A model generated the notes under the pieces. It was not told where the DNA came from. It saw nothing but the letters and a program-made list of their open reading frames with translations, and did no database searches. From a virus (lineage: Duplodnaviria; Caudoviricetes), in the IMG/VR virus record IMGVR_UViG_3300027759_000043: a DNA stretch of 64,000 nucleotides; one strand, given 5' to 3'. Position 1 is the stretch's first letter, and every line of letters starts with the position of its first letter. Shown piece by piece: positions 3,424 through 64,000 of the stretch. Position numbers and translations under genes: made by a program.

Positions 3424-3434
3424 AAGGATAGCGA

Positions 3435-5597: not shown

Positions 5598-5618
5598 ATA
5601 CAATCGAGGACAGGTTTC

Positions 5619-8998: not shown

Positions 8999-9001
8999 AA
9001 A

Positions 9002-10378: not shown

Positions 10379-10398
10379 AACTTGTATTTATGGGCAGG

Positions 10399-10427
10399 TT
10401 GACCAATAAATCCAAAACTGCTATAAT
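10399..10427 (+). promoter_or_regulatory. Sigma70-type promoter with extended -10
   Basis: TTGACC-17 nt-TATAAT with TG at -15/-14; SD aaggag then GTG at 10453. Confidence 0.75.
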
Positions 10428-10452
10428 TACACATAATCTTTAAGGAGTCCTT

Positions 10453-11580: not shown

Positions 11581-11610
11581 CGGGCTAAATATTGGGGACG
11601 GAGTTCCCTA

Positions 11611-12378: not shown

Positions 12379-12385
12379 AACGCAA

Positions 12386-12414
12386 TAGACAATCTGTTGC
12401 AGTTGTGTTACAAT
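12386..12414 (+). promoter_or_regulatory. Sigma70-type promoter
   Basis: TAGACA-17 nt-TACAAT with TG extension, 6 nt before ATG 12421. Confidence 0.55.
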
Positions 12415-12420
12415 CATCAC

Positions 12421-12942
12421 ATGGACCTGATGATTGATTTAGAGGGCTTGGCAACAGGCCCCGACACTACTATTCTTACCATAGCCGCACAGGCTTTTGA
12501 TCCTCTAGGTGACGGTTGGTACGACCAAGAATACTATGCTCGAATCACTCTAGAAAGTCAAGAAAATCGACGCATCGAACAAGGCACACTGGAATGGTGG
12601 GCAACTCAACCTGCACCTGCTAGAGACGAAGCCTTTGCCGAAGAAGGGCGTATTCCACTAGATCAAGCATTAGATGAGTTAGGCCGGTTGATTTGGCACT
12701 CCAAGATGATCTGGGCCCAAGGTCCTACATATGACTGTAACATACTTGAACACGCCTACAAGAGTTATGGCAAAGCCTTGCCTTGGAAATACTATCAGGT
12801 ACGAGATTCGAGAACTGTGTTTAGTCTGTGGCCAGAACTGCCCAAGCCTCCTACTAGTCATCATGCACTGGAAGACTGCCGCAGACAAATTGGTATGCTT
12901 CAAGACACGCTGAAATATCTCAACGTAAAGGAACTGATTTGA
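12421..12942 (+). CDS. DEDDh 3'-5' exonuclease (exonuclease VIII N-terminal/Rv2179c-like)
   Basis: MIDLEGL, WAQGPTYDCNIL, VRDSRT, HHALEDC motifs. Confidence 0.85.
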   Translation: MDLMIDLEGLATGPDTTILTIAAQAFDPLGDGWYDQEYYARITLESQENRRIEQGTLEWWATQPAPARDEAFAEEGRIPLDQALDELGRLIWHSKMIWAQGPTYDCNILEHAYKSYGKALPWKYYQVRDSRTVFSLWPELPKPPTSHHALEDCRRQIGMLQDTLKYLNVKELI

Positions 12943-13931
12943 AAATTATAAGAATAGATGATATATCTTTCAAAGATGATAATTTAGTTAACACACTCGT
13001 TGATCTGTCCAATGCACAGCCATGTGCATTTGGTATATTTTCTGAAGTATTTCTCACTAGTAAGAGGTTAGTTCCTATACTTGAACAATTGCCACCAGGA
13101 TACAAAATAGTATTAGATCGATCACACCAATCACAAGCAGTTGCTTGGCCGATTCCAGCGTTATATATAGATTGGCATTTGTTACGAGTTAACAATGCAG
13201 TAAACACAAATAAATCACAAAATAATAGTTGCTATAATCCAACCACTGGTAAATTTTTGTTTTTAACTGGTAAATCATACAAGTTACAAAGAATTAAATT
13301 GTTATGGATGTATGCTCAGGCGAATCTATTAGACCGTGCAATATGGAGTTTATTCTTAGACAACAACACTGTGGAAAAGTGTCGCAAATTTTTGCCCGAA
13401 CTTGACGAGTTAGAGTTAACAGAGTTTTTAACACAATACCAATGTAACCCAGACAACATTGAATTAGAAAGACATGAAGCACAAGTACTCTCTAGTGTCC
13501 AGTGGCAAAAAAATCTCTATGAGCAAACCAGTTTGAATGTGGTTAGCGCAACAGAATTTGTTGATAATTCTTATGACATGGTCTTATGTGAAAAAATATG
13601 GAAGCCCATTATAAACTGCCAACCTTTTATCGTTGCTGGACAACAAAATACATTAAATCGCTTGAAGGATTTAGGTTTTTTAACTTTTGAAAAGTATATG
13701 GTATACCCAGATTACAGCAACGAATCAAATACACAAGAAAAATTAAAGAAAATTGTGGCCAACACTGCTGGGTTTTTGGATAATATAAATATCTATCAAA
13801 CACAAGTGACCCAAGATGTTGAGCATAATTATAATCACTTCTTCCAAGTGGTTGATAATAATATGACACAGTTGCGAGAGTTTGTTGAAGACAATCAATT
13901 AATTTTAGACTTTACAGGAAGACATTTATGA
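12939..13931 (+). CDS. AT-rich hypothetical protein, possibly GT-B glycosyltransferase-like
   Basis: 330-aa ORF with LNVVSATEF, CEKIWKPIINCQPFIVAG, LKDLGFLTF. Visibly more AT-rich than its flanks. Confidence 0.5.
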   Translation: MKIIRIDDISFKDDNLVNTLVDLSNAQPCAFGIFSEVFLTSKRLVPILEQLPPGYKIVLDRSHQSQAVAWPIPALYIDWHLLRVNNAVNTNKSQNNSCYNPTTGKFLFLTGKSYKLQRIKLLWMYAQANLLDRAIWSLFLDNNTVEKCRKFLPELDELELTEFLTQYQCNPDNIELERHEAQVLSSVQWQKNLYEQTSLNVVSATEFVDNSYDMVLCEKIWKPIINCQPFIVAGQQNTLNRLKDLGFLTFEKYMVYPDYSNESNTQEKLKKIVANTAGFLDNINIYQTQVTQDVEHNYNHFFQVVDNNMTQLREFVEDNQLILDFTGRHL

Positions 13932-14593
13932 TCATTGGAGTATGTGGATTTATTGGCTCGGGCAAAGATACTATTGCTGATTATCTCACTAACTTTCATG
14001 GATTCCGTAGAGAATCATTTGCATCGACCTTAAAAGATGCTGTGGCACAGGTGTTTGGTTGGGATCGTACTCTATTAGAAGGGCGCACAAAACAAGCCCG
14101 TGAATGGCGTGAACAAGTGGATCCTTGGTGGGCAGAACGTTTACACATGCCCACACTAACTCCACGTTGGATCTTGCAATACTGGGGTACAGAAGTGTGC
14201 AGGGCCGGATTCCATGATGACATCTGGATTGCCAGTTTGGAAAACAAACTGCGCCACAGTCAAGATGATGTTGTGATATCAGACTGCCGTTTTCCTAACG
14301 AAATTCGTGCTATTAAAAATGCCGGCGGCCGAGTTATTCGAGTAACCCGTGGTGCAGAACCCGCTTGGTATGATGCCGCTTTGAGTGTAAATCGTGGCGC
14401 TAATGGTAATAGTACCTGGGCGCTAAGCCACAAGAAACTAGAAAAACTTGGCATCCACGCCTCAGAAACTGCTTGGGTAGGTACACAGTTTGACGCGGTA
14501 CTAGACAATAATGCTACAGTAGACGACTTATTTGCACAGATCAATGATCTGCTTGCAAGTCTCCAGGTCGCCAAGGTACCGCCAAGCGTCTAA
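13928..14593 (+). CDS. Deoxynucleoside monophosphate kinase (T4 gp1-like)
   Basis: IIGVCGFIGSGKDT P-loop, FASTLKD, TPRWILQYWGTE, ISDCRFPNE. Confidence 0.9.
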   Translation: MIIGVCGFIGSGKDTIADYLTNFHGFRRESFASTLKDAVAQVFGWDRTLLEGRTKQAREWREQVDPWWAERLHMPTLTPRWILQYWGTEVCRAGFHDDIWIASLENKLRHSQDDVVISDCRFPNEIRAIKNAGGRVIRVTRGAEPAWYDAALSVNRGANGNSTWALSHKKLEKLGIHASETAWVGTQFDAVLDNNATVDDLFAQINDLLASLQVAKVPPSV

Positions 14594-14885
14594 CTTCTTC
14601 TACGCAGTTCAGGCAGACTGTGCGTAGGTTAGATAGTTCTGTGTTGGTTAGTCGGCCATCCATATGATACACTAGTAGTTGGCTAGCATATCTTGATCTA
14701 AATCCACAACGATCACACACAGTTTTTTTCTTGTACCCTGCTGATTGCCATCTTGCTATAGGTGCTTTTTCCTTGCGCCCACGACGTATACAGTTGTCGC
14801 AGGTCTTGCGATAGTAAACAGTTTCTTCACGACGATAATTTACAGCCACTGGGCGTTGGTTACAGGCTTTGCAAGTTGGTCTCAT
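14541..14885 (-). CDS. HNH-like zinc-binding protein
   Basis: CKAC, CDNC, CDRC...YHMDGRLTN..LSNLRTVCLNC. ATG 14885 directly follows a TAAATA motif. Confidence 0.65.
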   Translation of the reverse strand: MRPTCKACNQRPVAVNYRREETVYYRKTCDNCIRRGRKEKAPIARWQSAGYKKKTVCDRCGFRSRYASQLLVYHMDGRLTNTELSNLRTVCLNCVEEVRRLAVPWRPGDLQADH

Positions 14886-14982
14886 TGAGTATTTATGGGC
14901 ACGAACCTTTATAAAGGGCATCGTAACTGGCATGGTTTTAGTCTGTTACGATAAATATCTTTAAGTTTTATAAGGAGCCAAC

Positions 14983-17900
14983 ATGGCACTAGTTTCCCCA
15001 GGTGTACAAGTCACCATCATAGATGAAAGCAATTATCTTTCAGCCGCTACAAATTCAGTACCTTACTTTTTAATTGCCACTGCGCAAGACAAAGTATCAG
15101 GATCTGGAGTAGGAGTGGCTGCCGGTACATTGGCTGCAAATGCCAATAGAGCCTATTTGATCACTAGTCAACGAGATTTGACTGCTACATTTGGCAATCC
15201 CTTCTTTTACAAGACCACTATTGGTACTCCAATCAATGGTTATGAACTCAATGAATATGGTTTACTTGCGGCTTACTCTGCATTAGGAGTGACCAACCGT
15301 GCTTATGTACAGCGTTGCGACATTGACTTAACACAACTCACAGCCAGTCTTGTACGTCCTACAGGCGAACCCGACAATGGTGCCTACTGGTTAGATACTG
15401 CCAATACATTATGGGGTATTTTTGAGTGGAATTTGACCACAGGTACCTTTAGCAATATGGTGCCAACAGTGATCACAGACACTGTGTACCTTACTGGTGG
15501 TGTTCCTTCAGACAGTTATGGTAGCATTGGCGACTATACAGTGGTAGCAACCAACACAGCCAATCCAATCTATTACAAAAATGGAGCAGCCGACAGTGAT
15601 CAAACCAGTTCCACTACATTGCAAGATTTATACAACACCTGGGTGTTAGTAGGCAGTAATGACTGGAAACTGAGTTATCCCACAGTCACAGGCGCAAATG
15701 CAGTGACCGCTGATTTGACTGCTGGAAATACATTAGTAATCAATGGTACCTCGGTTGCTGTGCCTGTAAGCCCCAACAACGATGTTGCTGGACTCAGTGC
15801 CGCAATCAACACAGCCGCTATTACTGGTGTGTACAGTGCAGTAATTGACAACAAGTTGTGTTTGTTTGCCGATGCAACTGCTCAAGCAGATGGCTCAACT
15901 GCCGACGATGGTGTTATTGTGATCAACAGTGTGGGAAGTACTGCCGGATTGATCACAACATTAGGTCTAACTACCAATGACGTTTATTATGCTCCAACAT
16001 TGCAACAAAGCCCCAGTTATCAAAACCCACGTTGGAATTCTACTGGATCAACTCCACGACCCACTGGATCAGTTTGGAACAAAATCAACAGTGTAAATCT
16101 TGGAACCACAATGGTTGTCAAGCAATACTCTACTGCACTGGCAGCATTTGTTCAACAATCAGCCACCGTATATGCCAATGACTGGACAGCCAATGCAACT
16201 CTTGACACCACTGGTGGCAAACTTATTTCAGCCGGCGCTACATATACCCAGTACAACGTAGATCCTGAGGTAAATGGCGGTCCTACCAGTAATTACCCTT
16301 TCAATCCCACTTATACACTTCAAGTATTTGAAAGATCAGTTGCGGGGCCCACAGTAATCACAGGAGACGATGACACAGCCACATTCATCAATGGTAATGC
16401 GTTCTACATCATGACTTCCGTGGCCAACAGTACAACATTGACCACTCCGGTGTTGGCCACCGTAAACGGTACAACACCCGCCGCGTTTGTAACAGCAGTG
16501 AGTGCGGCTTCAGTACCTAATGTCAGCGCCAGCATTGACAGTAATGGTTATATTGTACTCACACAAACACAAGGTGGAGTAATTCTACTGCAAAATGCCA
16601 CTGGTACTCCTGTAACTGCCGCAGGATTTAACACCACGGTCACAGGATGTCGTACAGTGTATCTTGACACAGACACCACAGTACCAATCACTGCGGCAAG
16701 TGACACATGGTTGAATTTGAGCAACTGGGTTGCCGCAACTTACACAGCCAGTGCTACAGCACCTGATCAGGATCCTGCAGATGGTCGCTACTGGTACTAC
16801 TCAGCAACCAACCAGGTTGATATCATGATTCAAAGTGGTACAGGCTGGGTTGGTTATCAAAATGAAACCAATGATGTTCGTGGAAACAATCTGAGCCTGA
16901 CAAATCCAACGGGACCAATTATTAGTGCTACTGCACCTACTACGCAAACAGATAACACAGCGTTGGTATATGGTGATATTTGGATCGACACCAGCAACTT
17001 AGAATTGTATCCAGTGATCAATCGTTGGTCAGTAGTTGAAGGAGTTGATCAATGGGTCACTCTTGACAACACAGATCAAACCACACAAAACGGTGTGTTG
17101 TTTGCAGATGCTCGCTGGAGTTCAACAGGCACAGTAAATCCTATCACTGGCGCATTACCTACTATCACAAGTTTGCTGACCAGCAACTACTTGGATGTTG
17201 ACGCACCGGACTACACACTATATCCAACAGGCATGTTGTTGTTTAACACACGCCGTTCTGGATTCAATGTCAAGAGTTTTCAAACAGATTATTTTAATGC
17301 TACAAGTTTCTCATATTCAACATGGAGTAACACAACTCAATACGCAATAGGTGATCAAGTGTTGTATAACACTACCTTGTATGTGGCAATTGCAACACCT
17401 CCTGTTGCTACAGTTCCTACAAATACTAGTTACTGGAGTGAACTAGAAGTCAACAGTTGGGTAACAGCAAGTGGCAACCGGAATGACGGTGCTCCTTACA
17501 TGGGACGCTTTGCTCAACGCGAATTGATTGTGGCTGCACTCAAGTCAGGAATTGATACCAGTGTGACCATAAGAGAAGAACAAAATCAATTCAACCTGAC
17601 AGCATGTACCGCTTATCCTGAATTGATTCCTAACATGGTAGCACTCAGCAACGAGCGCAACAACACTGTGTTTGTGGTAGGTGATACTCCAATGCGTTTG
17701 CCAGCAACAGGTGCTGATATTGTGAGTTGGGCAACCAACAACGCAGGAGCAGGCTACTTAACAGGTGATGGTTTGACCACAAGTACTCCTTACCTGGGTG
17801 TGTTCTATCCAAGTTGTCAGACAGTTGACCTGTCAGGATCTGCTGTGGTTACAGCACCAAGTCACATGATGGTTCGTACTATCATCCGCAATGACGAAGT

Positions 17901-18468
17901 GGCTTATCCATGGTTGGCACCCGCAGGTACACGTCGTGGTGTAATTGACAACGCTGATCAAATTGGTTATATCAATGGCCAAACAGGTGAGTTTGTTACA
18001 CTGGGTGTAAATCAAGCCCTGCGTGATGTGTTATATCAAAACAATATCAACCCAATTACATTTGTGCCTGGTGTGGGTATTACCAACTTTGGTAACAAAA
18101 CAACTTATGCCAATGCCACAAGTTTGGATCGCATCAACGTGGCACGTTTAGTTGTGTTTATTCGCAACAGACTCGAATCAATTGGCAAGCAGTTCTTGTT
18201 TGAGCCAAATGATCAAATCACACGTGACGAGATCAAGAATGCTGTTAACAGTCTAATGATTGACTTGGTGGCCAAGCGTGGTATCTATGACTACTTGGTT
18301 GTTTGTGATGATACCAACAACACACCAGCCAGAATTGACGCCAACGAACTATGGGTTGACATTGCAATTGAACCTGTCAAGGCAGTGGAATTTATCTATA
18401 TTCCAATTCGTCTCAAGAACACAGGCGAGATCGCAGCCGGCTCAGTGGCAGTGGCACAAGCAGTCTAA
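14983..18468 (+). CDS. gp18: Tail sheath protein (T4 gp18-like, enlarged to 1161 aa)
   Basis: MALVSPGVQVTIIDES start; C-terminal WLAPAG.RRG, NINPI, DRINVARL, FLFEPND..TR, IEPVKAVEFIYI. Confidence 0.95.
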   Translation: MALVSPGVQVTIIDESNYLSAATNSVPYFLIATAQDKVSGSGVGVAAGTLAANANRAYLITSQRDLTATFGNPFFYKTTIGTPINGYELNEYGLLAAYSALGVTNRAYVQRCDIDLTQLTASLVRPTGEPDNGAYWLDTANTLWGIFEWNLTTGTFSNMVPTVITDTVYLTGGVPSDSYGSIGDYTVVATNTANPIYYKNGAADSDQTSSTTLQDLYNTWVLVGSNDWKLSYPTVTGANAVTADLTAGNTLVINGTSVAVPVSPNNDVAGLSAAINTAAITGVYSAVIDNKLCLFADATAQADGSTADDGVIVINSVGSTAGLITTLGLTTNDVYYAPTLQQSPSYQNPRWNSTGSTPRPTGSVWNKINSVNLGTTMVVKQYSTALAAFVQQSATVYANDWTANATLDTTGGKLISAGATYTQYNVDPEVNGGPTSNYPFNPTYTLQVFERSVAGPTVITGDDDTATFINGNAFYIMTSVANSTTLTTPVLATVNGTTPAAFVTAVSAASVPNVSASIDSNGYIVLTQTQGGVILLQNATGTPVTAAGFNTTVTGCRTVYLDTDTTVPITAASDTWLNLSNWVAATYTASATAPDQDPADGRYWYYSATNQVDIMIQSGTGWVGYQNETNDVRGNNLSLTNPTGPIISATAPTTQTDNTALVYGDIWIDTSNLELYPVINRWSVVEGVDQWVTLDNTDQTTQNGVLFADARWSSTGTVNPITGALPTITSLLTSNYLDVDAPDYTLYPTGMLLFNTRRSGFNVKSFQTDYFNATSFSYSTWSNTTQYAIGDQVLYNTTLYVAIATPPVATVPTNTSYWSELEVNSWVTASGNRNDGAPYMGRFAQRELIVAALKSGIDTSVTIREEQNQFNLTACTAYPELIPNMVALSNERNNTVFVVGDTPMRLPATGADIVSWATNNAGAGYLTGDGLTTSTPYLGVFYPSCQTVDLSGSAVVTAPSHMMVRTIIRNDEVAYPWLAPAGTRRGVIDNADQIGYINGQTGEFVTLGVNQALRDVLYQNNINPITFVPGVGITNFGNKTTYANATSLDRINVARLVVFIRNRLESIGKQFLFEPNDQITRDEIKNAVNSLMIDLVAKRGIYDYLVVCDDTNNTPARIDANELWVDIAIEPVKAVEFIYIPIRLKNTGEIAAGSVAVAQAV

Positions 18469-18485
18469 CAGGACCGCTAGACACG

Positions 18486-18515
18486 AAAATGGGGTGGCAA
18501 CACCCCATTTTTTTT
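18486..18515 (+). terminator. Rho-independent terminator
   Basis: AAAATGGGGTG-GCAA-CACCCCATTTT hairpin followed by a T-run, right after the sheath gene. Confidence 0.85.
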
Positions 18516-18527
18516 GATCTCAAATGA

Positions 18528-18535
18528 TATAAATA
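18528..18535 (+). promoter_or_regulatory. T4-type late promoter (TATAAATA)
   Basis: Exact T4 gp55 consensus 20 nt upstream of the tail tube ATG, with SD aggaga. Confidence 0.8.
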
Positions 18536-18555
18536 ACACTATAGGAGATACTAAT

Positions 18556-19197
18556 ATGGCCGTTGCATCATTATCAAGAATGACAGTGCCCCTGGCAAGC
18601 GATCAAAGCGCAAGCAATCAGGGCTTGCTCATGCCCAAACTCAAATATCGCTTTCGAGTGGTATTTGAAAACTTTGGCGTGAGTACACCTAGAACAGAAT
18701 TGACCAAACAGGTCATGGACTTCAAACGTCCCACAGTGACCTTTGACCCCATTGTTATTCCAATCTACAACAGTGAACTAAAACTGTCGGGCAAACCGCA
18801 CTGGACAGATGTCACATGCACATTACGTGATGATGCATCGGGCGCCACCACTCGCCTGGTCGGCGAACAGGTTCAGAAACAAATGGACTTCTTGGAAATG
18901 GCTTCGGCTGCTTCGGGCATTGACTACAAGTTTACCACACGTTTTGAAGTATTGGATGGTGGCAATGGTGCCGCTACACCCAACATCCTTGAAACCTGGG
19001 AATTGTATGGTTGCTATCTAAGCAATGTTGACTATGGTGATGCCAGTTATGGCACTAATGATCCAATGACTATTGCAATGACCATTGTATACGACAATGC
19101 TAACCAGACACCTAACGGTACTGGCATTGGTACTGCAATTGCTAGAACAGTGAATGACGTTGTAACCGGCGCTGGTACTGCTCAGGCAGTCCAGTAA
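18556..19197 (+). CDS. gp19: Tail tube protein (T4 gp19-like)
   Basis: LMPKLKYRFRV, GKPHW.DVTCTLRDD, ETWELYGCY, IVYDNA. Immediately follows the sheath gene. Confidence 0.85.
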   Translation: MAVASLSRMTVPLASDQSASNQGLLMPKLKYRFRVVFENFGVSTPRTELTKQVMDFKRPTVTFDPIVIPIYNSELKLSGKPHWTDVTCTLRDDASGATTRLVGEQVQKQMDFLEMASAASGIDYKFTTRFEVLDGGNGAATPNILETWELYGCYLSNVDYGDASYGTNDPMTIAMTIVYDNANQTPNGTGIGTAIARTVNDVVTGAGTAQAVQ

Positions 19198-19209
19198 GGA
19201 TAAAACAAT

Positions 19210-20352
19210 ATGCAATGGGGTCAGGATTTCCTGACAGGTTTTTTTGGCGCACAAGGTCTCAAAGACTACGCACACGCCAGCAAAACCTTTAGAACCAACG
19301 GATACGAACTTGCTCCCAGGAACAAGTTCTTATTTCATGTTTACTTCAATCTCAACACAAGTGAAATCCCCACACTGCGAAATGTTTTCAGTGCTAGTGA
19401 ACAGGCTGAATTGGGACTGTTGGTCAAGACCATACAACTGCCGACCTACACACTCGATACTGAAACACTAAATCAATACAACCGCAAACGAATAATACAA
19501 AAGAAAATCAACTACATGCCAGTGTCAATGACATTTCATGATGATGGTGGTGACCTAAGTCGTAACCTTTGGTACAATTATTATTCATACTACTACAAAG
19601 ATCCTAATCAACAGTACGGATCAGCCAGCAGTCAAAACGGCACCAATGGCCAGGTGGCTAATGAACCGGGATTTTCCTACAACTCCAGAGATATCTATGC
19701 CAACAATCGTTCAGTCAACGACTGGGGCTACATCGGTGAAGGGTACAGTCAGGGCAATGCTGGAGGGTCAGGTGGAGGGTCAGGTGGAGATCAGACTTCG
19801 GGCAAGCCGCCCTTCTTTAGAGATATCACTATCTATGGAATGGATCAACACAAGTGGGCTAGTTATGTGTTGATTAATCCTCTTGTGAAAGAATGGAAAC
19901 ATGATCAATACAACTACAGCGAAGGTGGCGGCATTATGGAAAATGCTATGACTGTGGAATATGAAACTGTAAAATACTATACTGGTGCTATCGGAGGATC
20001 AAGATCTGACACCAACGTCAAAGGCTTTGCTGATCCAGCGCACTACGACAACGTTAGATCAAGTCTGGCAAGACCTGGCAGCACAAGAACTGTATTGGGG
20101 CAAGGCGGCTTGTTGGATGCTGGCATTGGTATTGTGCGAGATTTACAAACTGACAGTTTTGATCCGATTGGCGCAGTACAAAAAGCAGGCACAGTTTACA
20201 ATACATTTAAAGGTGCCAACATCAAGAGTGTGGTCAATGAAGAAGCCAATGCGGCGGTCAAGGCCGTGGTGCGCAACAGCATTCCGGGTGCAGTAAGACA
20301 ACAACAAGGTGGATCAGGAGGCTTTGTGTTTCCTAGATCGCCAGGAGCATAA
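19210..20352 (+). CDS. Tail tube-like baseplate/tube initiator protein (gp48/gp54-like)
   Basis: APRNKFLFHVYF, LVKTIQLPTY, NQYNRKR..QKKINY.PVSMTFHDD: tube-fold-like pattern, downstream of gp19. Confidence 0.55.
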   Translation: MQWGQDFLTGFFGAQGLKDYAHASKTFRTNGYELAPRNKFLFHVYFNLNTSEIPTLRNVFSASEQAELGLLVKTIQLPTYTLDTETLNQYNRKRIIQKKINYMPVSMTFHDDGGDLSRNLWYNYYSYYYKDPNQQYGSASSQNGTNGQVANEPGFSYNSRDIYANNRSVNDWGYIGEGYSQGNAGGSGGGSGGDQTSGKPPFFRDITIYGMDQHKWASYVLINPLVKEWKHDQYNYSEGGGIMENAMTVEYETVKYYTGAIGGSRSDTNVKGFADPAHYDNVRSSLARPGSTRTVLGQGGLLDAGIGIVRDLQTDSFDPIGAVQKAGTVYNTFKGANIKSVVNEEANAAVKAVVRNSIPGAVRQQQGGSGGFVFPRSPGA

Positions 20353-52164: not shown

Positions 52165-53187
52165 ATGAGTGCAATTCGAGTTTTACGTGGTGTGTATCGT
52201 AACCAGCCTGTACAAGACATTTCTTTTACTCTTGTAAAAGGATTTCAAACTGGTGCTAAAGGTGGCTTTGTCACTGTAAAAAATGAGGGACAATTTCCCG
52301 GTTTCGCACCTACAATCCGTATCACTGTTGACAACCCTTCAGATATCGAGTATACTAACAGCATGACAAAAGACAACACCGTACATTTTGAAAAACAAGT
52401 TTTAGTAGCAGAAACGGACGAGGATGCAATGACACGTATCCGTGAACGTTTTGACATCTTAACAGAAATGACCAAAGCAGCCACAGCCGGTGACATCCGT
52501 GCTATGATTGTTAGCGGACCTCCAGGCGTGGGCAAGAGTTACGGCGTAGAGCAAGAGATTGAAAAGGCTTGCTTGTTTGACAAAATTTCTGGCAAACGTC
52601 TACGTGCCGAAGTTGTAAAAGGTAGTGCCACCCCAATTGGCCTGTTCCAAACACTTTACAAATACTCAGACGCAAATTGTGTGTTAGTATTTGACGACTG
52701 TGATAGTATTTTGCTAGACGACGTTGCTCTTAACTTGCTGAAAGGTGCATTAGATTCGGGCAAGAAACGTACCATTAGTTGGTTGTCAGAGTCTAGTGCT
52801 TTGCGTCGTGAAGGCATTCCAGATCGTTTCGAATTCAAAGGTTCAGTAATCTTTATTACCAATCTTAAATTTGATCAAATGAAATCGCAAAAATTGCGTG
52901 ATCACTTGGACGCATTGCAATCACGCTGTCACTACCTGGACTTGACCTTGGACACCATGCGTGACAAATTGTTGCGTATCAAACAGATTGCCAAAGACGG
53001 CGTACTATTCCAAGATTACGATTTTGATGAGGCTGTGCAAGACGATATTATTGACTTCATGCACACCAACAAGGACCGTTTGCGTGAAGTATCTTTGCGC
53101 ATGGCGCTCAAGATTGCAGACTTGCGCAAGATGTCAGTGTTAAACTGGAAACGTTTGGCAGAAACAACTTGTATGAAGAGTGCCTAA
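52165..53187 (+). CDS. AAA+ ATPase
   Basis: SGPPGVGKS Walker A, VLVFDDCD Walker B, LLKGALD, FITN, SRC. SD aaggag. Confidence 0.85.
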   Translation: MSAIRVLRGVYRNQPVQDISFTLVKGFQTGAKGGFVTVKNEGQFPGFAPTIRITVDNPSDIEYTNSMTKDNTVHFEKQVLVAETDEDAMTRIRERFDILTEMTKAATAGDIRAMIVSGPPGVGKSYGVEQEIEKACLFDKISGKRLRAEVVKGSATPIGLFQTLYKYSDANCVLVFDDCDSILLDDVALNLLKGALDSGKKRTISWLSESSALRREGIPDRFEFKGSVIFITNLKFDQMKSQKLRDHLDALQSRCHYLDLTLDTMRDKLLRIKQIAKDGVLFQDYDFDEAVQDDIIDFMHTNKDRLREVSLRMALKIADLRKMSVLNWKRLAETTCMKSA

Positions 53188-53661: not shown

Positions 53662-54465
53662 ATGCAAATAGTCTTTTCTAATGGTGAAACTGTAGATTTA
53701 CTAATGAACCAAACACCAGTGGCTTCTGTCTATCAAAAAATATATAAACATCTGCAAAATGTTACTATTCCTTTTCGAGACTGGGACAGCCCTTTTTATT
53801 TTTATAATCACTCCTTGCAACAAATGGTTGGCAAGTTGGCTATGTATGCAGAAAAAGTAAATGTATCAATTGATCAACAGCGTTGCTTGGCACAAGATCA
53901 ACATTATTTGAATTCTATACACGAAATTTATGAGAAAAACTACAATGGAGATCCTGCATGGTTAGACTTTCACGAACACATTCACCTATGTGAACAAGAG
54001 TATACATATAAATTAAAAATTTTTAGGATTGATTATAGAGAAAAATCTGGCCTGTTAGAAAAACCATTTGATTACGAATGGCTAGAAAACGCAACGACAA
54101 AAATCAAAGCCGGCGATGTGTTCATATCATGGAACGAATTAGGAAAAACGCCATACACCTATTGGTACCATAACGAACCTAATGACATAACTCGTATGCG
54201 CGAGTTAATTAAACCCTGGGTAAGATTAATACCTAAAATTTTCATTGCATTGGAAGATAAAGACCTAGAAAAAGATTGCACAAAACTTTTAGAATTTGAG
54301 TCCTGGTGGGCGCAATACAGTGAAAAACTTTGCCAATATTGGAATATTCCATCATGGACTTCAAATGATATGTTTAAATGTTTGATTTTGGGTAAAGTAG
54401 TGGACATTGGTACATTTATCACACTATTAAAAAACAACGTCACACCAATTAGAGTTATATTATAG
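53662..54465 (+). CDS. AT-rich hypothetical protein
   Basis: 267-aa ORF, TAAATA at 53652. Confidence 0.7.
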   Translation: MQIVFSNGETVDLLMNQTPVASVYQKIYKHLQNVTIPFRDWDSPFYFYNHSLQQMVGKLAMYAEKVNVSIDQQRCLAQDQHYLNSIHEIYEKNYNGDPAWLDFHEHIHLCEQEYTYKLKIFRIDYREKSGLLEKPFDYEWLENATTKIKAGDVFISWNELGKTPYTYWYHNEPNDITRMRELIKPWVRLIPKIFIALEDKDLEKDCTKLLEFESWWAQYSEKLCQYWNIPSWTSNDMFKCLILGKVVDIGTFITLLKNNVTPIRVIL

Positions 54466-54502
54466 GTTGCATTTTCCAACGCAATCAATTAAAATACACA
54501 CA

Positions 54503-55972
54503 ATGAAAAGATGTACAATACAGATTAAGGACGAAGTCAACATCCGACTAGAGGGACTAGATTTAGATGTGCGTCGATCCTTGGTCACGGCTTTTAAATA
54601 TGATGTACCTTATGCTAGATATCTTCCAGCAGTTCGTTTAGGACGTTGGGACGGCAAGATCAGTTACTTCCAATTAGGCGGTAGTACTTACACAAACTTG
54701 CTACCCGAGATTATTCCCATATTAGAAAAGTTTGATTACGATATTGAACTGGATGATCAAAGAGATTACTCGACTACCTTTGCATTTGAACAAGTGCGTG
54801 AGGATTCATTTGCACATGTGAAGTGGCCCAAGGGACATCCTGCCGCAGGTGAGTCCATTATGATGCGAGACTATCAAGTTGATATTGTGAACAACTTCCT
54901 GGCCAATCCACAATGCTTGCAAGAAGTGGCCACAGGTGCAGGCAAAACTATCATGACAGCGGCGTTGTCAAATGCAGTGGCACCATATGGACGCTCAATC
55001 GTTATTGTGCCCAACAAGAGTTTGGTGACACAAACAGAAAAAGACTACATCAACATGGAGCAAGATGTGGGTGTGTTCTTTGGAGATAGAAAAGAGTATG
55101 GACGCACACATACCATTTGCACTTGGCAAAGTTTGAATGTGCTGTTAAAGAACACCAAGTCGGGTGTGGGTGACTGCACTATTGGTGAATTCTTGGAAGG
55201 TGTGGTGTGCGTTATTGTAGACGAAGTACACATGGCCAAAGCAGATGCACTCAAAACCTTGCTAACAGGCGTGATGGCTAGAGTGCCGATTCGATGGGGT
55301 TTGACTGGAACCATACCCAAGGAGAAGTTTGAGAGTCAGGCGTTGCTGGTGGGACTGGGTCCTGTTATTGGACGCTTGAGCGCCAACGAACTGCAACAGC
55401 AAGGGGTATTGGCCAACTGTCATGTGAACATTGTGCAGTTGGTTGATCACGTGGAGTATAAAGAGTATCAATCGGAACTTAAATACTTGCTTGAAGAGTC
55501 AGGCCGATTGGACACCATGGCTGAACTGATCCGTAAGGTAAATGAAACAGGTAACACACTGGTGCTTGTGGATCGAGTGGCCGCAGGACATGCTCTAGTA
55601 GAACGGCTGGGTGATCGTGCTGTTTTTGTAAGCGGTGCGACCAAAGCAAAAGATAGACAAGATGAATATGATGAAGTTGCAGACAGCGTTGATAAGATTA
55701 TTGTGGCTACCTATGGTGTTGCCGCTGTGGGTATTAATATCCCTAGGATTTTTAATTTGGTTCTTATTGAACCCGGCAAAAGTTTTGTCCGTGTTATTCA
55801 AAGTATTGGACGAGGCATAAGAAAAGCCGAAGACAAAGATCATGTGCAAATTTGGGACATTACTAGTACCTGCAAGTTTGCCAAAAGACACCTAACCAAA
55901 CGCAAACAGTTTTATAAAGAAGCCAACTATCCATTCAGTTCAGAAAAACTAGAGTGGATGAAAATCGCTTGA
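54503..55972 (+). CDS. uvsW: SF2 DNA helicase (UvsW-like)
   Basis: MRDYQ, ATGAGKT, IVDEVH, GLTGT, VGINIP, QSIGRGIR. Confidence 0.9.
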   Translation: MKRCTIQIKDEVNIRLEGLDLDVRRSLVTAFKYDVPYARYLPAVRLGRWDGKISYFQLGGSTYTNLLPEIIPILEKFDYDIELDDQRDYSTTFAFEQVREDSFAHVKWPKGHPAAGESIMMRDYQVDIVNNFLANPQCLQEVATGAGKTIMTAALSNAVAPYGRSIVIVPNKSLVTQTEKDYINMEQDVGVFFGDRKEYGRTHTICTWQSLNVLLKNTKSGVGDCTIGEFLEGVVCVIVDEVHMAKADALKTLLTGVMARVPIRWGLTGTIPKEKFESQALLVGLGPVIGRLSANELQQQGVLANCHVNIVQLVDHVEYKEYQSELKYLLEESGRLDTMAELIRKVNETGNTLVLVDRVAAGHALVERLGDRAVFVSGATKAKDRQDEYDEVADSVDKIIVATYGVAAVGINIPRIFNLVLIEPGKSFVRVIQSIGRGIRKAEDKDHVQIWDITSTCKFAKRHLTKRKQFYKEANYPFSSEKLEWMKIA

Positions 55973-57258: not shown

Positions 57259-57983
57259 CACCTAATAGACTGGTTGTAAATGGTTGTAGTTATATGGCGT
57301 ACTATGACCGCGGCGGCGGTACACAAGATCTTGCCTCATGTCTAGGAATACCAACGTCAGAAAATCTTTCGATGAATTCAGCATGTAATAGTAGAATTAT
57401 AAGAACCACACTAAGAGACAGTTACAAAACATTAGTTCCTACACTTTATATAATCGGTATTACTTTTTTGACTAGGTACGAGTTGCCAACACGTTTAGAA
57501 AGAGACAATGAGGATGGTAAATGGAGGTCGTTAAATTCTGGTTTATCTTCTTCCACAACGTCAAGTTTTGAACCTGAATTTGATAAGCATTTTACAGTTC
57601 AAGACTTGATAGAGTATTCTGCTCTTTGGGATAAATTTACCACGCTGGGAATAGAGGATCTTGCGGTGAACTTGCAATATCAGTTGTTGAGCCTACGTGA
57701 TAGTCTGCACTATCGAGGACACAGATGTGTGATATTTAATACTGCTGAACATGTGTTGGATTGGGTAATTGACAACAAATCATTTGATTTATTAAAATCA
57801 AACAAACAATTTGTTCAGAGACTTAAATGGAAAAGTATACCTTGGCAATTTGAACAAGGCGCAGACTTTTATCCAGGTGACGAAAAACATCCAGCAGATT
57901 CTAGACATGTTGCATTAGGACAACATCAATGGTTGAATAAATTTTTAGTTGACTATATCAATCAAAACGGTATTTTAGAATGA
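57255..57983 (+). CDS. AT-rich SGNH/GDSL-like protein
   Basis: LVVNGCSY, NLSMNSACNSRIIR, DSRHVALGQH. Confidence 0.55.
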   Translation: MTPNRLVVNGCSYMAYYDRGGGTQDLASCLGIPTSENLSMNSACNSRIIRTTLRDSYKTLVPTLYIIGITFLTRYELPTRLERDNEDGKWRSLNSGLSSSTTSSFEPEFDKHFTVQDLIEYSALWDKFTTLGIEDLAVNLQYQLLSLRDSLHYRGHRCVIFNTAEHVLDWVIDNKSFDLLKSNKQFVQRLKWKSIPWQFEQGADFYPGDEKHPADSRHVALGQHQWLNKFLVDYINQNGILE

Positions 57984-58654
57984 CATTCACGTGTGAGTAT
58001 TGTAAGAAAACATTTGCTAGAGAAACAAGCATAGCAGTTCACATGTGTGAGCCCAAGCGCAGACGTCTTAGCAAGGATGAAGCAGGTGTGCGCCTGGGAT
58101 TTCAGGCCTACATCAAGTTTTACGAAACCATGCAAGGCTCGGCAAAAAACAAAACACATGATGACTTTTGTGACTCGCCGTATTACAGAGCATTTGTCAA
58201 GTTTGGAAACTATTGTGTAAACACTCATGTGATTGCCCCGGCAAGATTCATGACATGGTTGTTAAAAGCACAAAAGAAAATTGATCACTGGTGCAGTGAC
58301 AAGATCTATACAGAATATCTCGTAGAATACCTACGTGTGGAAGCAGTGGACGATGCCTTGGCCCGTGCAATTGAACACAGCATGAGATGGGCAGAGGAAA
58401 CAGGCAATCCCGCACATGACTGGATGCGCTATGGCAATACCAATAGTCTATGTTATGCTGTCACAGCAGGACGCATTTCGCCCTGGGTGATCTACAATAG
58501 TGAATCAGGACAAAAGTTCTTGAGTGAACTCTCAACAGAACAAGTGGCCATGGTGTGGCCCTATATCGACTCAGATGCCTGGCAAAAAAAGTTTGCTAAC
58601 TATCCAGCAGATAAAGAGTATGCCAAAGAAATATTGAAACAAGCAGGATGGTAA
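57980..58654 (+). CDS. Hypothetical protein with N-terminal zinc finger
   Basis: FTCEYCKKTFARETSIAVHMC. Confidence 0.75.
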   Translation: MTFTCEYCKKTFARETSIAVHMCEPKRRRLSKDEAGVRLGFQAYIKFYETMQGSAKNKTHDDFCDSPYYRAFVKFGNYCVNTHVIAPARFMTWLLKAQKKIDHWCSDKIYTEYLVEYLRVEAVDDALARAIEHSMRWAEETGNPAHDWMRYGNTNSLCYAVTAGRISPWVIYNSESGQKFLSELSTEQVAMVWPYIDSDAWQKKFANYPADKEYAKEILKQAGW

Positions 58655-58655
58655 C

Positions 58656-59012
58656 ATGATCAAAGCAATTCACACCAGTGGAAAGTACATACAAGTAATA
58701 GGCGGCAGTGCCAGCACCTATGTAAGTGCTCAACCCGGTTCACAGGGTGTTGGTAACTTACGATTCAACACCAGTGCTCAGCGTCTTGAAGTTTATGATG
58801 GTATGACTTGGTTGGAACTAAACATGCCACATACCAGTGTAGGACTCAATGGGGCGGCCGAGGAAGCCATTGATTGGGTACAACAACAAATGGCGGAAGA
58901 AAAAAGGCTTGCGGCGTTAGCAAAAGAACATCCTGCTGTGGCAGATGCACTTGAAGCAGTTGAGCAAGCACAGGAACGAGTACGTATTGTGGCCGCATTG
59001 GTGCAAGAATGA
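58656..59012 (+). CDS. Hypothetical protein
   Basis: 118 aa; GNLRFNTSAQRLEVYDG motif followed by a coiled coil. Confidence 0.7.
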   Translation: MIKAIHTSGKYIQVIGGSASTYVSAQPGSQGVGNLRFNTSAQRLEVYDGMTWLELNMPHTSVGLNGAAEEAIDWVQQQMAEEKRLAALAKEHPAVADALEAVEQAQERVRIVAALVQE

Positions 59013-59569
59013 GCGCAGACATTGATTTAGATTTTGCTGACAGAGAATCAGTGCTGAAACTGATTCGGCATACTCCGGCACGGCAAAGCAATGGTAGGCG
59101 ACACAACTCGGGTGTGTACGTTACTGATATACCAAGAGATCCGTTTAATAACTGTGCGGCTTTGGATTATGAAACTGCTGAACAGCGTGGATACTTCAAA
59201 CTAGACTTCTTGAACATGAGTGTGTATCAGTTGGTTCGTGATCCCTCACACTATGAGGCAATGTTGACTGCAACACCACCTTGGGAACGACTGTGGACTG
59301 ATCGCGAGTGGGCCCGGCAGTTGGTACACGTGGGCAACTATACAGATTTACTAAAAGTAATGAAGCCAGATTCAATACCCAGGATGGCGGCTTTTATATC
59401 TATTATTCGTCCGGGCAAGGCGCATTTACAGACACGTTCATGGGCAGAAGTATTTGCTGGTGTATGGGATGGAGATGATTCACAAGGCTACACATTCAAG
59501 AAGAGTCATAGTATTTCTTATGCGGCTCTAGTGGCTTTGCATATGAATCTGCTTAATCAACCCGCCTAA
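59009..59569 (+). CDS. Minimal DNA polymerase III alpha (DnaE, family C) catalytic-core homolog, 186 aa
   Basis: ADIDLDF, HNSGVYV, GYFKLDFL, IIRPG and GYTFKKSHSISYA appear in DnaE order. Confidence 0.75.
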   Translation: MSADIDLDFADRESVLKLIRHTPARQSNGRRHNSGVYVTDIPRDPFNNCAALDYETAEQRGYFKLDFLNMSVYQLVRDPSHYEAMLTATPPWERLWTDREWARQLVHVGNYTDLLKVMKPDSIPRMAAFISIIRPGKAHLQTRSWAEVFAGVWDGDDSQGYTFKKSHSISYAALVALHMNLLNQPA

Positions 59570-59939
59570 CGAGTGTAATACTCTTTCTTTTGCTCTTCTT
59601 GCGAGCAATGTCGTTTAAACTGCATATTGGGCCATGCAGAATCTCTAGATCTTTGTTGGCAAATGTTCGCAATGTAGGACGGAACGGATCCCATTCTCCA
59701 CGCAGGAATATATTGATGGGTATACTTCTATTGCTTTCCCACCACCAGGTGTTGGCTAAATCTATAAATCTGCGCTTGGCATCCTGGTCTGTAACAGCAC
59801 CAAAGTCGTAGATGGTGGTAATTGCATCATCACGATTTTGTACTATGCCCACATATTCGTTACTGGCATACATGCACAAGGTTATAAACGGATATTTGTC
59901 TGCTAATTTTTGAAATAAGTCACTGCCCATAAGTTTCAT
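59553..59939 (-). CDS. Hypothetical protein (late promoter)
   Basis: TATAAATA on the minus strand at 59946-59953; WWWESNRSIPINIFL. Confidence 0.7.
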   Translation of the reverse strand: MKLMGSDLFQKLADKYPFITLCMYASNEYVGIVQNRDDAITTIYDFGAVTDQDAKRRFIDLANTWWWESNRSIPINIFLRGEWDPFRPTLRTFANKDLEILHGPICSLNDIARKKSKRKSITLVRRVD

Positions 59940-59983: not shown

Positions 59984-61075
59984 ATGTACTCAACCACCGC
60001 CTACATTTATCAACAGATCCAGCGAATTTTATTAATAGACACTGAAGGAGTGGGTGAGGTATTTGTCCGGAGGTGGGAACCAGTGTACGCAAAAAAACTA
60101 ACAATCAACAAGGGCGTGGATAACGTGATCTTGTTTGAATTCATTAATCAAGATCAAAAGCCGGTAAACATTACCGGTAGCAATTTGATATTCAGACTAA
60201 TCAATTTGCAGGGCGATGTGCAATTGCTGGAAAAAGAAATGGTGATATTGAATGCACCATTTGGTCGTGCCAAAGTCACACTTTCGGCAGCAGATACCAC
60301 AGCACTACCTACAGAACCTGCCAGTTACTCAATAGACAGAGCAAGTGGCAATCTAACAGAAGCGGTGTTTGTGGATGCACAAGCACAGGCACGTGCTGAT
60401 GTGGATATTCAAGATAGTGTACTGCCGGAGTTTGTGCCAAGCCATACTGTGACAGTGCCTACCATATATGGTCCCGAAGTGTACATCAATCCTGTGTATG
60501 CTGGCAACTATCCTGACTGGGCTCTGAATCCACCTCCAGTGGGCAACGTACAACCCAACCCCGAACGTTACTCAAGTTTTATCCCCACAACAGGCGCCAG
60601 TTTAACCACATTCCAGTTGACCATGGACCACTACACTGGCAACATCAAAGCACAGGCAGCCGAGACTTATCAAAGTGAATGGTATGATGTCAGCAACATA
60701 TCTTCATACTATAACCGAACAGGTTCGGAATATATCAATGTACTGGGTTATCATCCATTACTGCGTCTTGCACTCAACAGTTATTCAGGCGCAGAAATTG
60801 TAGGGCCTGCCACAGCCAATGCTCAGGCTGCTAATGGAGTGATCACTGGCATCACGGTGACCAATTCAGGTAACGGTTATCTAGCACCTCCCAAAGTCAC
60901 CATCATTGGTCTGGGTGCAGGTGCAGTGGCTGAAGCAGAAATTACAGGTGGCCAAGTCAGCGCCATAAATGTTACTAACGGAGGCCAAGGCTATACTCCC
61001 TCACCAGCGCAGCCAACAGTGCCTGCCGCGGTTGTTATCACAACAGGGGCAGTTGTAGACATAATTTGTAGATGA
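59984..61075 (+). CDS. Putative virion structural protein
   Basis: TAAATA at 59969; C-terminal GVITGITVTNSGNGY..PP.V...GGQGYT motif typical of large-phage structural proteins. Confidence 0.65.
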   Translation: MYSTTAYIYQQIQRILLIDTEGVGEVFVRRWEPVYAKKLTINKGVDNVILFEFINQDQKPVNITGSNLIFRLINLQGDVQLLEKEMVILNAPFGRAKVTLSAADTTALPTEPASYSIDRASGNLTEAVFVDAQAQARADVDIQDSVLPEFVPSHTVTVPTIYGPEVYINPVYAGNYPDWALNPPPVGNVQPNPERYSSFIPTTGASLTTFQLTMDHYTGNIKAQAAETYQSEWYDVSNISSYYNRTGSEYINVLGYHPLLRLALNSYSGAEIVGPATANAQAANGVITGITVTNSGNGYLAPPKVTIIGLGAGAVAEAEITGGQVSAINVTNGGQGYTPSPAQPTVPAAVVITTGAVVDIICR

Positions 61076-61805: not shown

Positions 61806-62795
61806 ATGCTTGATATACTGCAATATTTGCCTGCAAAACGACGACCCAGTCCACAAGGCTGGTTGAGTTTCAATGCGGTGTGTTGCGCCCATAATGGTAA
61901 TAGTCAGGACAAGCGCGGGCGTGGTGGGATCAAGGTAACTGAACAAGATTGGAGTTATCATTGCTTCAATTGCAGTTACACAGCCAGTTTTGTTCTAGGA
62001 CGCACAGTGGGTTTCAAAGCCCGAAGATTATTGAGTTGGATGGGTGTGCCCGATAACGAGATTGAAATGCTTAATCTTGAAAGTCTGCGGCATCGTAGCA
62101 TACACGGTATACTTGAAGATAGACAACGAGTATTCAATGCACTAAGTGCTATTGAGTTTGAAGAGTCAGATGACTTCCCACCTTTCTCTGAAGTGGTTAC
62201 ACCAGAAGTTCCTTACTATTGGAACTACATTCGTCGACGCGGTGTGCCAGAAGACTTCCCCATCATGACTTCTATCAAGAACGATGGCGTTCATTGGGTT
62301 AGGCCGTTTGTGTTAGTACCGTTCACATATGACAACAAGGTAGTAGGCTGGACTGCTAGATTTTTAGATGACAAACAACCCAAGTACATCAATCACTCAC
62401 AACCCGGTTATGTATTTGGCACAGACTTGCAACATGCTGACTGGCAACATGTGCTGGTGATGGAAGGCATCTTTGATGCACTTTCAATTGGTGGGCTTGC
62501 TGTGATGCACAACACCATCAGTGACAGCCAAGCAAGATTGATTCGCAGTCTTGGACGTGAAGTAACTGTGGTACCTGATCAAGATACAGCAGGTGTGGAG
62601 TTAATTGACCGTGCTGTAGAACTGGGCTGGGCCGTGAGCATACCTGAGTGGCCAGCGGGTTGCAAAGATGTTAATGACGCTGTGATAAAACTAGGCAGAC
62701 TAGGCACCTTGCTAACTATTATGTCAGCAAGAGAAACTAGTAAGATTAAAATAGAAATAAGGAAGAAGCAACTTGTTAAAAGAATACGGACTTGA
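61806..62795 (+). CDS. gp61: DNA primase (T4 gp61-like)
   Basis: Zinc-binding CCAH...YHCFNC, TOPRIM VMEGIFDA, VPDQDTAG, KDVND. Confidence 0.9.
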   Translation: MLDILQYLPAKRRPSPQGWLSFNAVCCAHNGNSQDKRGRGGIKVTEQDWSYHCFNCSYTASFVLGRTVGFKARRLLSWMGVPDNEIEMLNLESLRHRSIHGILEDRQRVFNALSAIEFEESDDFPPFSEVVTPEVPYYWNYIRRRGVPEDFPIMTSIKNDGVHWVRPFVLVPFTYDNKVVGWTARFLDDKQPKYINHSQPGYVFGTDLQHADWQHVLVMEGIFDALSIGGLAVMHNTISDSQARLIRSLGREVTVVPDQDTAGVELIDRAVELGWAVSIPEWPAGCKDVNDAVIKLGRLGTLLTIMSARETSKIKIEIRKKQLVKRIRT

Positions 62796-64000
62796 TGTCC
62801 AAAGACTATTTCTAGAAATGATGTTGGAAGACGCAACAAGTTATGTGCGTGTTCAAAACATCTATAACCCACAGAACTTTGACAAAAGTTTGAGACCTGC
62901 GGCTGAGTTCATCAAAGAACACTCAGACAAACACAAGACCATGCCTGACAGGCAGCAGATTTCAGCGACCACGGGTGTTCGACTTGCACCAGTGCCGGAT
63001 TTGAATGAAGGACACTTTGACTGGTTCATGGGCGAGTTTGAAGCATTTACCCGACGTCAAGAACTTGAACGTGCTATTTTGAAATCGGCGGACTTGCTGG
63101 AAAAGGGCGAATTTGAGCCAGTGGAGAAACTGATCAAAGATGCAGTACAGATATCACTTACTAAAGACATGGGCACGGATTACTTTGCTGATCCCAAGGC
63201 TCGCATTGAGAAATACTTTAACTCGGGCGGCCAAGTAAGCACAGGTTGGCCACAACTGGATAGATTGTTGTACGGCGGATTCAGCCGTGGCGAACTAAAC
63301 ATTTTTGCCGGCGGTTCAGGTTCTGGCAAGAGTCTCGTGATGATGAACATTGCGCTAAACTGGTTGCAACAAGGACTTAGCGGTGTTTATATTACATTAG
63401 AATTGAGTGAAGAACTTACAAGTTTGAGAACTGATGCTATGTTAACAAACATGAGCACCAAAGACATTAGACGTGACATGGACACAACTGAACTTAAGGT
63501 CAAACTAGTAGCCAAGAAGTCCGGTAACTATCAGGTCAAGGGCTTGCCAGCACAGAGCAACATCAATGACATTCGCGCTTACTTGAAAGAGTATCAAATT
63601 CAGACAGGCAAGAAAGTAGACTTTGTGATGATTGACTACTTGGACTTGCTGATGCCAGTCAGTGCCAAAGTCAGTCCCAATGACTTGTTTGTTAAAGACA
63701 AGTATGTGAGTGAAGAATTGCGTAACTTGGCCAAAGAATTAGCAGTACTGATGGTTACTGCATCACAGTTGAATAGATCGGCTGTGGAAGAAGTTGAATT
63801 TGATCACTCGCATATTTCAGGTGGTATATCCAAGATCAATACTGCTGATAACGTGTTTGGTATCTTTACTAGCAGAGCAATGAAAGAGCGTGGCAAGTAT
63901 CAAATACAATGTATGAAGTCGCGCAGTTCAACAGGTGTTGGACAAAAGATTGATCTTGAATACAACATTGAAACCATGCGTATCACAGATGAAGGTGGTG
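62773..64000 (+). CDS. gp41: Replicative DnaB-like helicase (T4 gp41-like), 3'-truncated, absent from ORF track
   Basis: Translated by hand from TTG 62773: MLKEYGLDVQRLFLEMM...IFAGGSGSGKS...ITLELSE...MIDYLDL...TASQLNR...KSR; open to the window end. Confidence 0.9.
   Translation, partial: MLKEYGLDVQRLFLEMMLEDATSYVRVQNIYNPQNFDKSLRPAAEFIKEHSDKHKTMPDRQQISATTGVRLAPVPDLNEGHFDWFMGEFEAFTRRQELERAILKSADLLEKGEFEPVEKLIKDAVQISLTKDMGTDYFADPKARIEKYFNSGGQVSTGWPQLDRLLYGGFSRGELNIFAGGSGSGKSLVMMNIALNWLQQGLSGVYITLELSEELTSLRTDAMLTNMSTKDIRRDMDTTELKVKLVAKKSGNYQVKGLPAQSNINDIRAYLKEYQIQTGKKVDFVMIDYLDLLMPVSAKVSPNDLFVKDKYVSEELRNLAKELAVLMVTASQLNRSAVEEVEFDHSHISGGISKINTADNVFGIFTSRAMKERGKYQIQCMKSRSSTGVGQKIDLEYNIETMRITDEGG

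Follow-up and report, generated by a model that had tools for sequence, protein, structure and literature searches.

Positions 59009-59569 of the 64,000-nucleotide stretch analyzed here (the window) encode a protein of only 186 residues that bears the active-site motifs of DnaE, the bacterial replicase. Is this protein an enzyme in its own right or part of a larger one? The initial annotation had offered both readings: a stand-alone nucleotidyltransferase of the Pol-beta fold, or one piece of a split family C polymerase. Our analysis indicates that the product of the ORF (P0001; 59009..59569, +) is very probably the C-terminal subunit of a minimal family C nucleotidyltransferase that consists of two subunits and is found in T4-related 'group 2.2' giant phages. 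Specifically, it would be the subunit of a split minimal Pol III alpha that carries the Mg2+-binding catalytic aspartates and reduced fingers. Below, this subunit is referred to as the C-half and its partner as the N-half.

Kinship of the 186-residue protein to DnaE

Translation of 59009-59569 (+) yielded a single open frame of 186 codons. As the initial annotation had described, the frame is intact and contains five DnaE-like motifs in the following order: ADIDLDF (residues 3-9), HNSGVYV (32-38), YFKLDFL (61-67), IIRPG (132-136) and GYTFKKSHSISYA (160-172). Only three residues precede D4 of the DxD strand. Using an alignment of 72 homologs and a profile match to the PDB, the codons for D4-I-D6-L-D8 (59018..59032, +) were equated with E. 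coli DnaE D401-F-D403-V-D405, and those for K64-L-D66 (59198..59206, +) with K553-F-D555, D66 being the third catalytic aspartate. Similarly, R134-P135-G136 (59408..59416, +) corresponds to R639-P640-G641 and F163-K164-K165-S166-H167 (59495..59509, +) to F756-N757-K758-S759-H760.

A family profile was needed to establish this relationship, as searches with the single sequence came up empty. Thus, a Pfam search with the C-half alone gave no match even at an E-value of 10, the gathering score of DNA_pol3_alpha (PF07733) not being reached, and phmmer against the PDB returned only spurious matches to Vac8 (E 1.5). The PHROG profile phrog_11778, labeled 'DNA polymerase', matched the ORF with an E-value of 7.1e-51, residues 3-183 aligning with positions 7-192 of 197. 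The size of 186 aa (~185-215 aa in the family), the start just before the DxD strand and the end soon after FxKSH are as in this family. A second profile, phrog_405 (1190 positions), matched weakly (E 5e-6). We then built a profile from 72 full-length homologs, a diverse set sharing 27-65% identity with the query (alignment A1), and searched the whole PDB with it. This search retrieved nine distinct sequences, all of them Pol III alpha, the best being 5fku_A (E 9.5e-6). The profile was in register with DnaE at K553/D555, R639-P640-G641 and F756-H760. The D401/D403 stretch scored below zero, with D4, D6 and D8 still lining up with D401, D403 and D405.

A tblastn search located the C-half family in 96 phage records. 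Nearly all are 285-490 kb long (RaK2, 121Q, PAC2/MIJ3, Atu_ph07 and Phosso), and some carry the annotation 'DnaE-like DNA polymerase III alpha'. The same search identified a C-half in a record of only 142 kb, that of Alishewanella phage Slickus01, so the split system is not strictly confined to genomes larger than 200 kb.

Structure prediction against the DnaE palm, which the initial annotation had proposed as a check, gave a concordant result. The AlphaFold (AF2) model of the C-half had a pLDDT of 96.2 and a pTM of 0.88, and the top 16 matches in a Foldseek search of the PDB were all DnaE or PolC. Using VIA-align, 173-184 of the 186 residues were placed on E. coli DnaE 399-780, Thermus DnaE 460-837 and PolC 970-1294, with Z-scores of 6.1-9.8 (8.1 for E. 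coli 2hnh, 9.5 for Thermus 3e0d and 9.8 for PolC 3f2b). The best unrelated fold had a Z-score of 3.8. The model contains a Pol-beta-like palm with the three catalytic aspartates in DnaE register. Together with the PHROG matches and a PDB profile search that found Pol III alpha exclusively, these Z-scores indicate that the likeness of the motifs to those of DnaE is not due to chance.

The 186 residues span a stretch of 382 residues in DnaE (399-780), which supports the earlier claim that the protein lacks the thumb, a large part of the fingers and all that lies outside the palm. More specifically, the HMM alignment has gaps at the thumb region (~433-510) and in the middle of the fingers (~642-738), where ~100 finger residues of DnaE are deleted. 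Nothing in the C-half is equivalent to the PHP domain or to any part of DnaE before residue 399 or after residue 780, and the protein has no beta-clamp-binding motif, OB fold or tau-binding domain. Finally, with the ORF starting at the equivalent of DnaE 399, the GS triphosphate-binding motif is absent from the polypeptide.

A separate gene for the N-terminal half in relatives

A separate N-half gene was present in every sufficiently complete relative that was checked, and occurs alongside the C-half in Phosso, PAC2, G004, G005, G007-G009, G012, G013, G027 and G032. In Phosso and PAC2, whose C-halves are 40-42% identical to that of the window, the N-half is encoded by a distant gene of 169-177 aa. 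These two N-halves terminate in ...GVGRGSSVASY...EFL[NK] and match Pfam DNA_pol3_alpha positions 21-97 above the cut-off; the N-half of G032 also exceeds this cut-off. G032, an IMG/VR sequence of 300 kb, is the closest relative that could be searched for both halves. Its C-half is 76% identical to the window's and is followed 97 kb downstream, on that strand, by the N-half; a 911-aa PolB ORF is found further on. Conversely, of 12 large contigs with an N-half, 7 proved to carry a C-half as well, at a distance of 20-210 kb; both CheckV-complete genomes are among the 7.

The point at which the two halves part is fixed. Each of ~200 N-halves from IMG/VR stops at ...EFL[KRN] or no more than three residues from that point, and G-V-G-R-G-S-S is invariant in an alignment of 92 N-half sequences (A3). 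The N-half model, folded from A3, had a pLDDT of 91.7, and its residues ~70-172 aligned with E. coli DnaE 278-393 (Z 10-11) and M. tuberculosis DnaE1 304-413 (Z 12.8). The equivalent of the N-half, DnaE 278-393, thus abuts the start of the C-half at DnaE 399. In the N-half of G032 (L388:1198-1713), residues 1-68 were modeled as small strands and helices (pLDDT 77-93) that had no DnaE alignment in the fold search. Residues ~1-70 may represent a phage-specific extension sited where the PHP domain would join. N-halves with an EFLR stop were very abundant in low-GC IMG/VR loci (L186-L305; GC about 0.35), where they start with MLMKTD...

Within the 64-kb window, tblastn and a motif scan detected no N-half, and no Pfam PolB domain was found in the 10 largest ORFs. 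Similarly, neither an N-half nor PolB was found on three IMG/VR fragments with close C-halves (G001-G003; 10-37% complete), and comparison of window positions 1-20000 with 14 N-half records gave no DNA match. A search of IMG/VR for an exact 48-mer was also negative. The 169-aa N-halves of Group A (P0285) were considered as the cognate lineage and rejected: G027 pairs a Group A protein with a C-half only 42% identical to that of the window.

PolB was found in Phosso, PAC2, G027 and G032. The remark in the initial annotation that T4-like phages use family B is correct and presents no conflict, as relatives of the window phage carry PolB too. In PAC2 (W02; 202949-206726, loci L092, L094 and L096), PolB matches of 825 and 379 aa lie in two frames ~2.5 kb apart, which suggests that the gene is split or interrupted.

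Three natural proteins of 375-376 aa fuse an N-half to a C-half through a short linker (P0185, P0272 and P0273; locus L185:1066-2193). Their source metagenomes are independent. The fused proteins score above the Pfam DNA_pol3_alpha threshold, and are rare as compared to the thousands of split forms. Finally, we predicted the complex of the window C-half with the N-half of G032, using self-made alignments and a partner taken from this relative rather than from the window's genome. The complex scored 0.91 versus 0.00 for the best of three controls, a pass that may reflect memorization by the model, as solved DnaE structures contain the two segments side by side in one chain. Of 80 solved complexes, 58 attained the mark applied to this score, as did 2 of 110 mismatched pairs. 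Agreement between the runs was at least 96% of contacts, with a partner pLDDT of at least 91, and the predicted interface juxtaposes N-half residues 133-146 (GS motif) with C-half residues 2-10 (DxD strand) and 164-167.

Selection and gene neighborhood

The initial annotation had made its reading contingent on conservation of the catalytic aspartates and on non-neutral evolution. Indeed, D4, D6 and D66 are invariant in the 72 homologs of A1, as are K64, R134 and P135; D8, H32, G35, K164 and H167 are at least 90% conserved. Based on comparisons with 80 IMG/VR relatives that are 82-92% identical, in which the catalytic residues are fixed, the median Nei-Gojobori dN/dS of the C-half was 0.074 (range 0.043-0.144), a value that is approximate because dS is ~1.4 and near saturation, though far below 1. 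The C-half gene is clearly under strong purifying selection. When grouped at 90% or 50% identity, the family comprises at least 5,993 or 362 clusters, respectively. Full-length matches among the latter are mostly 180-220 aa, and many of the rows listed are shorter fragments.

Other genes of the window, for a T4-type terminase, a tail sheath and a gp15-like protein, identify the phage as a T4-related myovirus. Its relatives point to a giant background: nearly all phages carrying the C-half are of 285-490 kb, and close relatives occur on contigs of 300-335 kb.

Immediately upstream of the C-half is a 118-aa ORF (58656..59012, +), the stop codon of which overlaps the C-half start codon (ATGA). 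This overlap agrees with the earlier description of the ORF as coupled to its neighbor and suggests, from the arrangement of the codons, that the two are translationally coupled. Preceding this pair is a conserved neighbor, a C2H2 zinc-finger-like protein (phrog_11058; 57980..58654, +); in PAC2, a C2H2 protein occupies the equivalent position. On the other side, a convergent 128-aa ORF (phrog_11637; 59553..59939, -) overlaps the 3' end of the C-half gene by 17 nt. An ORF of similar size, matched by layout alone, is annotated at the same position and in the same orientation in Phosso, PAC2, 121Q and Atu_ph07; because of this recurrence, the 128-aa protein may be functionally tied to the C-half. 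Around the C-half gene, promoter-like sites were no more common than in shuffled sequence, and terminator-like sites were slightly more so (10 versus 6.5 ± 2.4).

Between the C-half and the primase is a 363-aa protein (59984-61075, +), the C-terminal ~70 residues of which match a domain that recurs in structural proteins of the virion and in those of the baseplate wedge. In 121Q and Phosso, the gene likened to it by position is annotated as a virion structural protein. The conserved replication cluster continues with a Toprim DNA primase (phrog_47, E 3e-32; 61806..62795, +) and a DnaB-like replicative helicase cut by the end of the window (phrog_19, E 6e-69; 62773..64000, +). Its upstream member is a UvsW-like DEAD/ResIII helicase (54467..55972, +). 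The initial annotation had reported gp62-like, primase and helicase neighbors. The primase and helicase were substantiated, whereas no gp62-like gene was, the nearest candidate being an AAA+ ATPase with weak similarity to clamp loaders (phrog_168, E 4e-4; 52165-53187). The order of UvsW, C-half, reverse ORF and structural gene, followed by primase and/or helicase, is shared by the window, 121Q, PAC2, Phosso and the partly annotated Atu_ph07.

Two further observations concern the edges of this cluster. In 121Q, gene 9 (L392:805-1623), located just upstream of UvsW, encodes a DnaQ-like RNase_T exonuclease annotated as 'DNA polymerase exonuclease subunit'. No homolog of this exonuclease was found in the window. 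The 267-aa ORF that occupies its slot (53662-54465) is unrelated and has no family match, and was rejected as an epsilon-like proofreader. In addition, two radical-SAM genes are inserted right after the DnaB helicase in a relative whose C-half is 88% identical (335-kb JGI contig, L009:15214-17418); this pair is missing from the L005 contig, which bears the window's exact protein.

Proposed mechanism and known systems

We have high confidence in the identity of the split mini-DnaE and in its assembly from two chains. That the ORF is one piece of a split family C polymerase, as the initial annotation had considered, is supported by its start at the DxD strand, the separate N-half genes, the natural fusions and a published description of such a system (Iyer et al. 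2021; Viruses 13:63, PMC7824862). In the mechanism that we propose, the C-half would supply the metal-binding residues D4, D6 and D66 (E. coli DnaE D401, D403 and D555) as well as K64 (K553), R134-P135-G136 (639-641) and K164/K165-S166-H167 (757-760), set on a palm and cut-down fingers module corresponding to DnaE 399-780. A predicted second protein of ~170 aa, encoded far off in the genome, would supply the GVGRGSS triphosphate-binding part of the Pol-beta-like fold (DnaE 278-393). The active site would be completed by non-covalent association of the two halves, with no intein involved. The resulting heterodimer would add nucleotides to a primer 3'-OH in a Mg2+-dependent reaction, and may work alongside the family B polymerase of the phage in replication or repair, where it could fill gaps or give primers their first extension before hand-off.

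Whether the heterodimer performs templated DNA synthesis in replication or repair appears evenly balanced. The same can be said of the role that we favor, short-patch or primer-proximal DNA synthesis beside PolB, which could as readily prove wrong as right. Processive templated synthesis is doubtful because the enzyme has no thumb, clamp-binding motif or proofreader, and lacks most of the finger elements that grip DNA. More tentatively, the mini-DnaE could be a dedicated primer-handling enzyme of the primosome as opposed to a back-up replicase. Such an enzyme would take RNA primers from the adjacent primase-helicase and add the first nucleotides before PolB, or would tail or modify 3' ends.

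The main alternative, which we consider rather unlikely, is that the heterodimer of N- and C-halves is a template-independent or otherwise specialized nucleotidyltransferase, acting in 3' tailing or modification, primer capping or the production of a nucleotide signal. Essentially a nucleotidyltransferase core has been kept: the thumb and ~100 duplex-gripping finger residues are deleted, and the clamp-binding, OB and PHP domains are all absent. Moreover, relatives have a complete PolB, such that a second replicase is not obviously needed, and our literature search found no reported activity, structure or phenotype for the split mini-Pol III alpha family. However, the RPG and F-x-K-S-H finger motifs of replicative DnaE are not only kept but conserved, the gene is linked with those of primase and helicase across distant relatives, and all detectable relatives of known function are DNA polymerases.

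It is very improbable that the 186-aa protein acts alone as a Pol-beta-fold nucleotidyltransferase, a reading of the initial annotation that is unsupported because the GS triphosphate-binding part of the fold is missing from the ORF. Thus, although all three catalytic aspartates are present and the protein folds confidently alone in silico, it starts three residues ahead of the DxD strand and without the GS segment that DnaE has just upstream. In relatives, that segment is a separate, equally conserved protein, and it is fused to the C-half in the three natural proteins described above.

The metal-binding aspartates and K64, invariant across homologs 27-65% identical to the query, and the dN/dS of ~0.07 argue against a non-catalytic remnant or decoy that binds DNA or parts of the host replisome, whether to block host Pol III, to hijack it or for a similar purpose, as a decoy would not need conserved metal-binding residues. 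Large deletions relative to DnaE are in keeping with such a role, yet the protein retains none of the DnaE regions for binding epsilon, beta and tau, and we regard this explanation as highly unlikely. Finally, post-translational joining of the halves by a split intein has next to no probability despite the known trans-splicing of split DnaE genes in cyanobacteria, as neither half has spare sequence at the split to leave room for intein pieces: N-halves end at the equivalent of DnaE 393, three residues precede D4 in the C-half (DnaE 399-401), and the natural fusions join the halves by a short linker only.

The preferred reading, a split mini-DnaE, has implications beyond this locus. The family is very common in nature and reduces the ~1160-aa bacterial replicase to ~355 aa distributed over two chains. 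Knowing what this mini-core is capable of would define the minimum needs of a family C polymerase and would explain its retention by T4-like giant phages that already have PolB. If it is indeed a primer-handling enzyme, it would represent the core of a family C polymerase in its smallest working form, and would serve as a living model of the Pol III catalytic module in its ancestral state. For the window itself, the outcome is chiefly a correct annotation.

The window gene is a new, divergent freshwater member of a family already published computationally. Based on sequence analysis, Iyer, Anantharaman, Krishnan, Burroughs and Aravind described a split minimal Pol III alpha that accompanies PolB in group 2.2 jumbo phages, and their family is PHROG 11778 (Iyer et al. 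2021). Judging from the accessible portion of that paper (PMC7824862), the window ORF is like the published members in size, in its start at the DxD strand and in its background of a T4-like giant myovirus; the relatives examined here are like them in having a separate gene for an N-terminal, NTP-binding partner and an accompanying PolB. Unlike the members in cultured phages, to which it is 27-42% identical, the window member belongs to an uncultured freshwater phage. Relative to the same portion of the paper, our analysis adds that the split point is strictly conserved and that natural fusions, though rare, exist, along with the mapping of both halves on DnaE 278-393 and 399-780, the metagenomic scale and the strength of selection.

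Among enzymes of solved structure, the palms of bacterial DnaE (E. coli 2HNH and 5FKU; Thermus 2HPI and 3E0D; M. tuberculosis 5LEW and 7PU7) and of PolC (3F2B) are homologous to the C-half. Common to all are the three aspartates, K553, RPG and FxKSH. DnaE contains ~1160 aa in one chain, whereas the phage protein comprises 186 and ~170 aa in two. Further, the phage C-half, unlike DnaE, has no PHP domain, thumb (~433-510), mid-fingers (~642-738), beta-clamp motif, OB fold or tau-binding domain.

Cyanobacteria likewise produce a family C polymerase from two distant genes, and the split DnaE is healed by protein trans-splicing through a split intein. In that protein, however, the split lies elsewhere, and the phage halves, which have no intein sequence, must associate non-covalently. 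In Bacillus subtilis, DnaE is a full-length, primer-extending partner of PolC. The resemblance to the phage system is a functional analogy only: each would provide a second, C-family polymerase beside the main replicase, and the phage gene adjoins those of primase and helicase.
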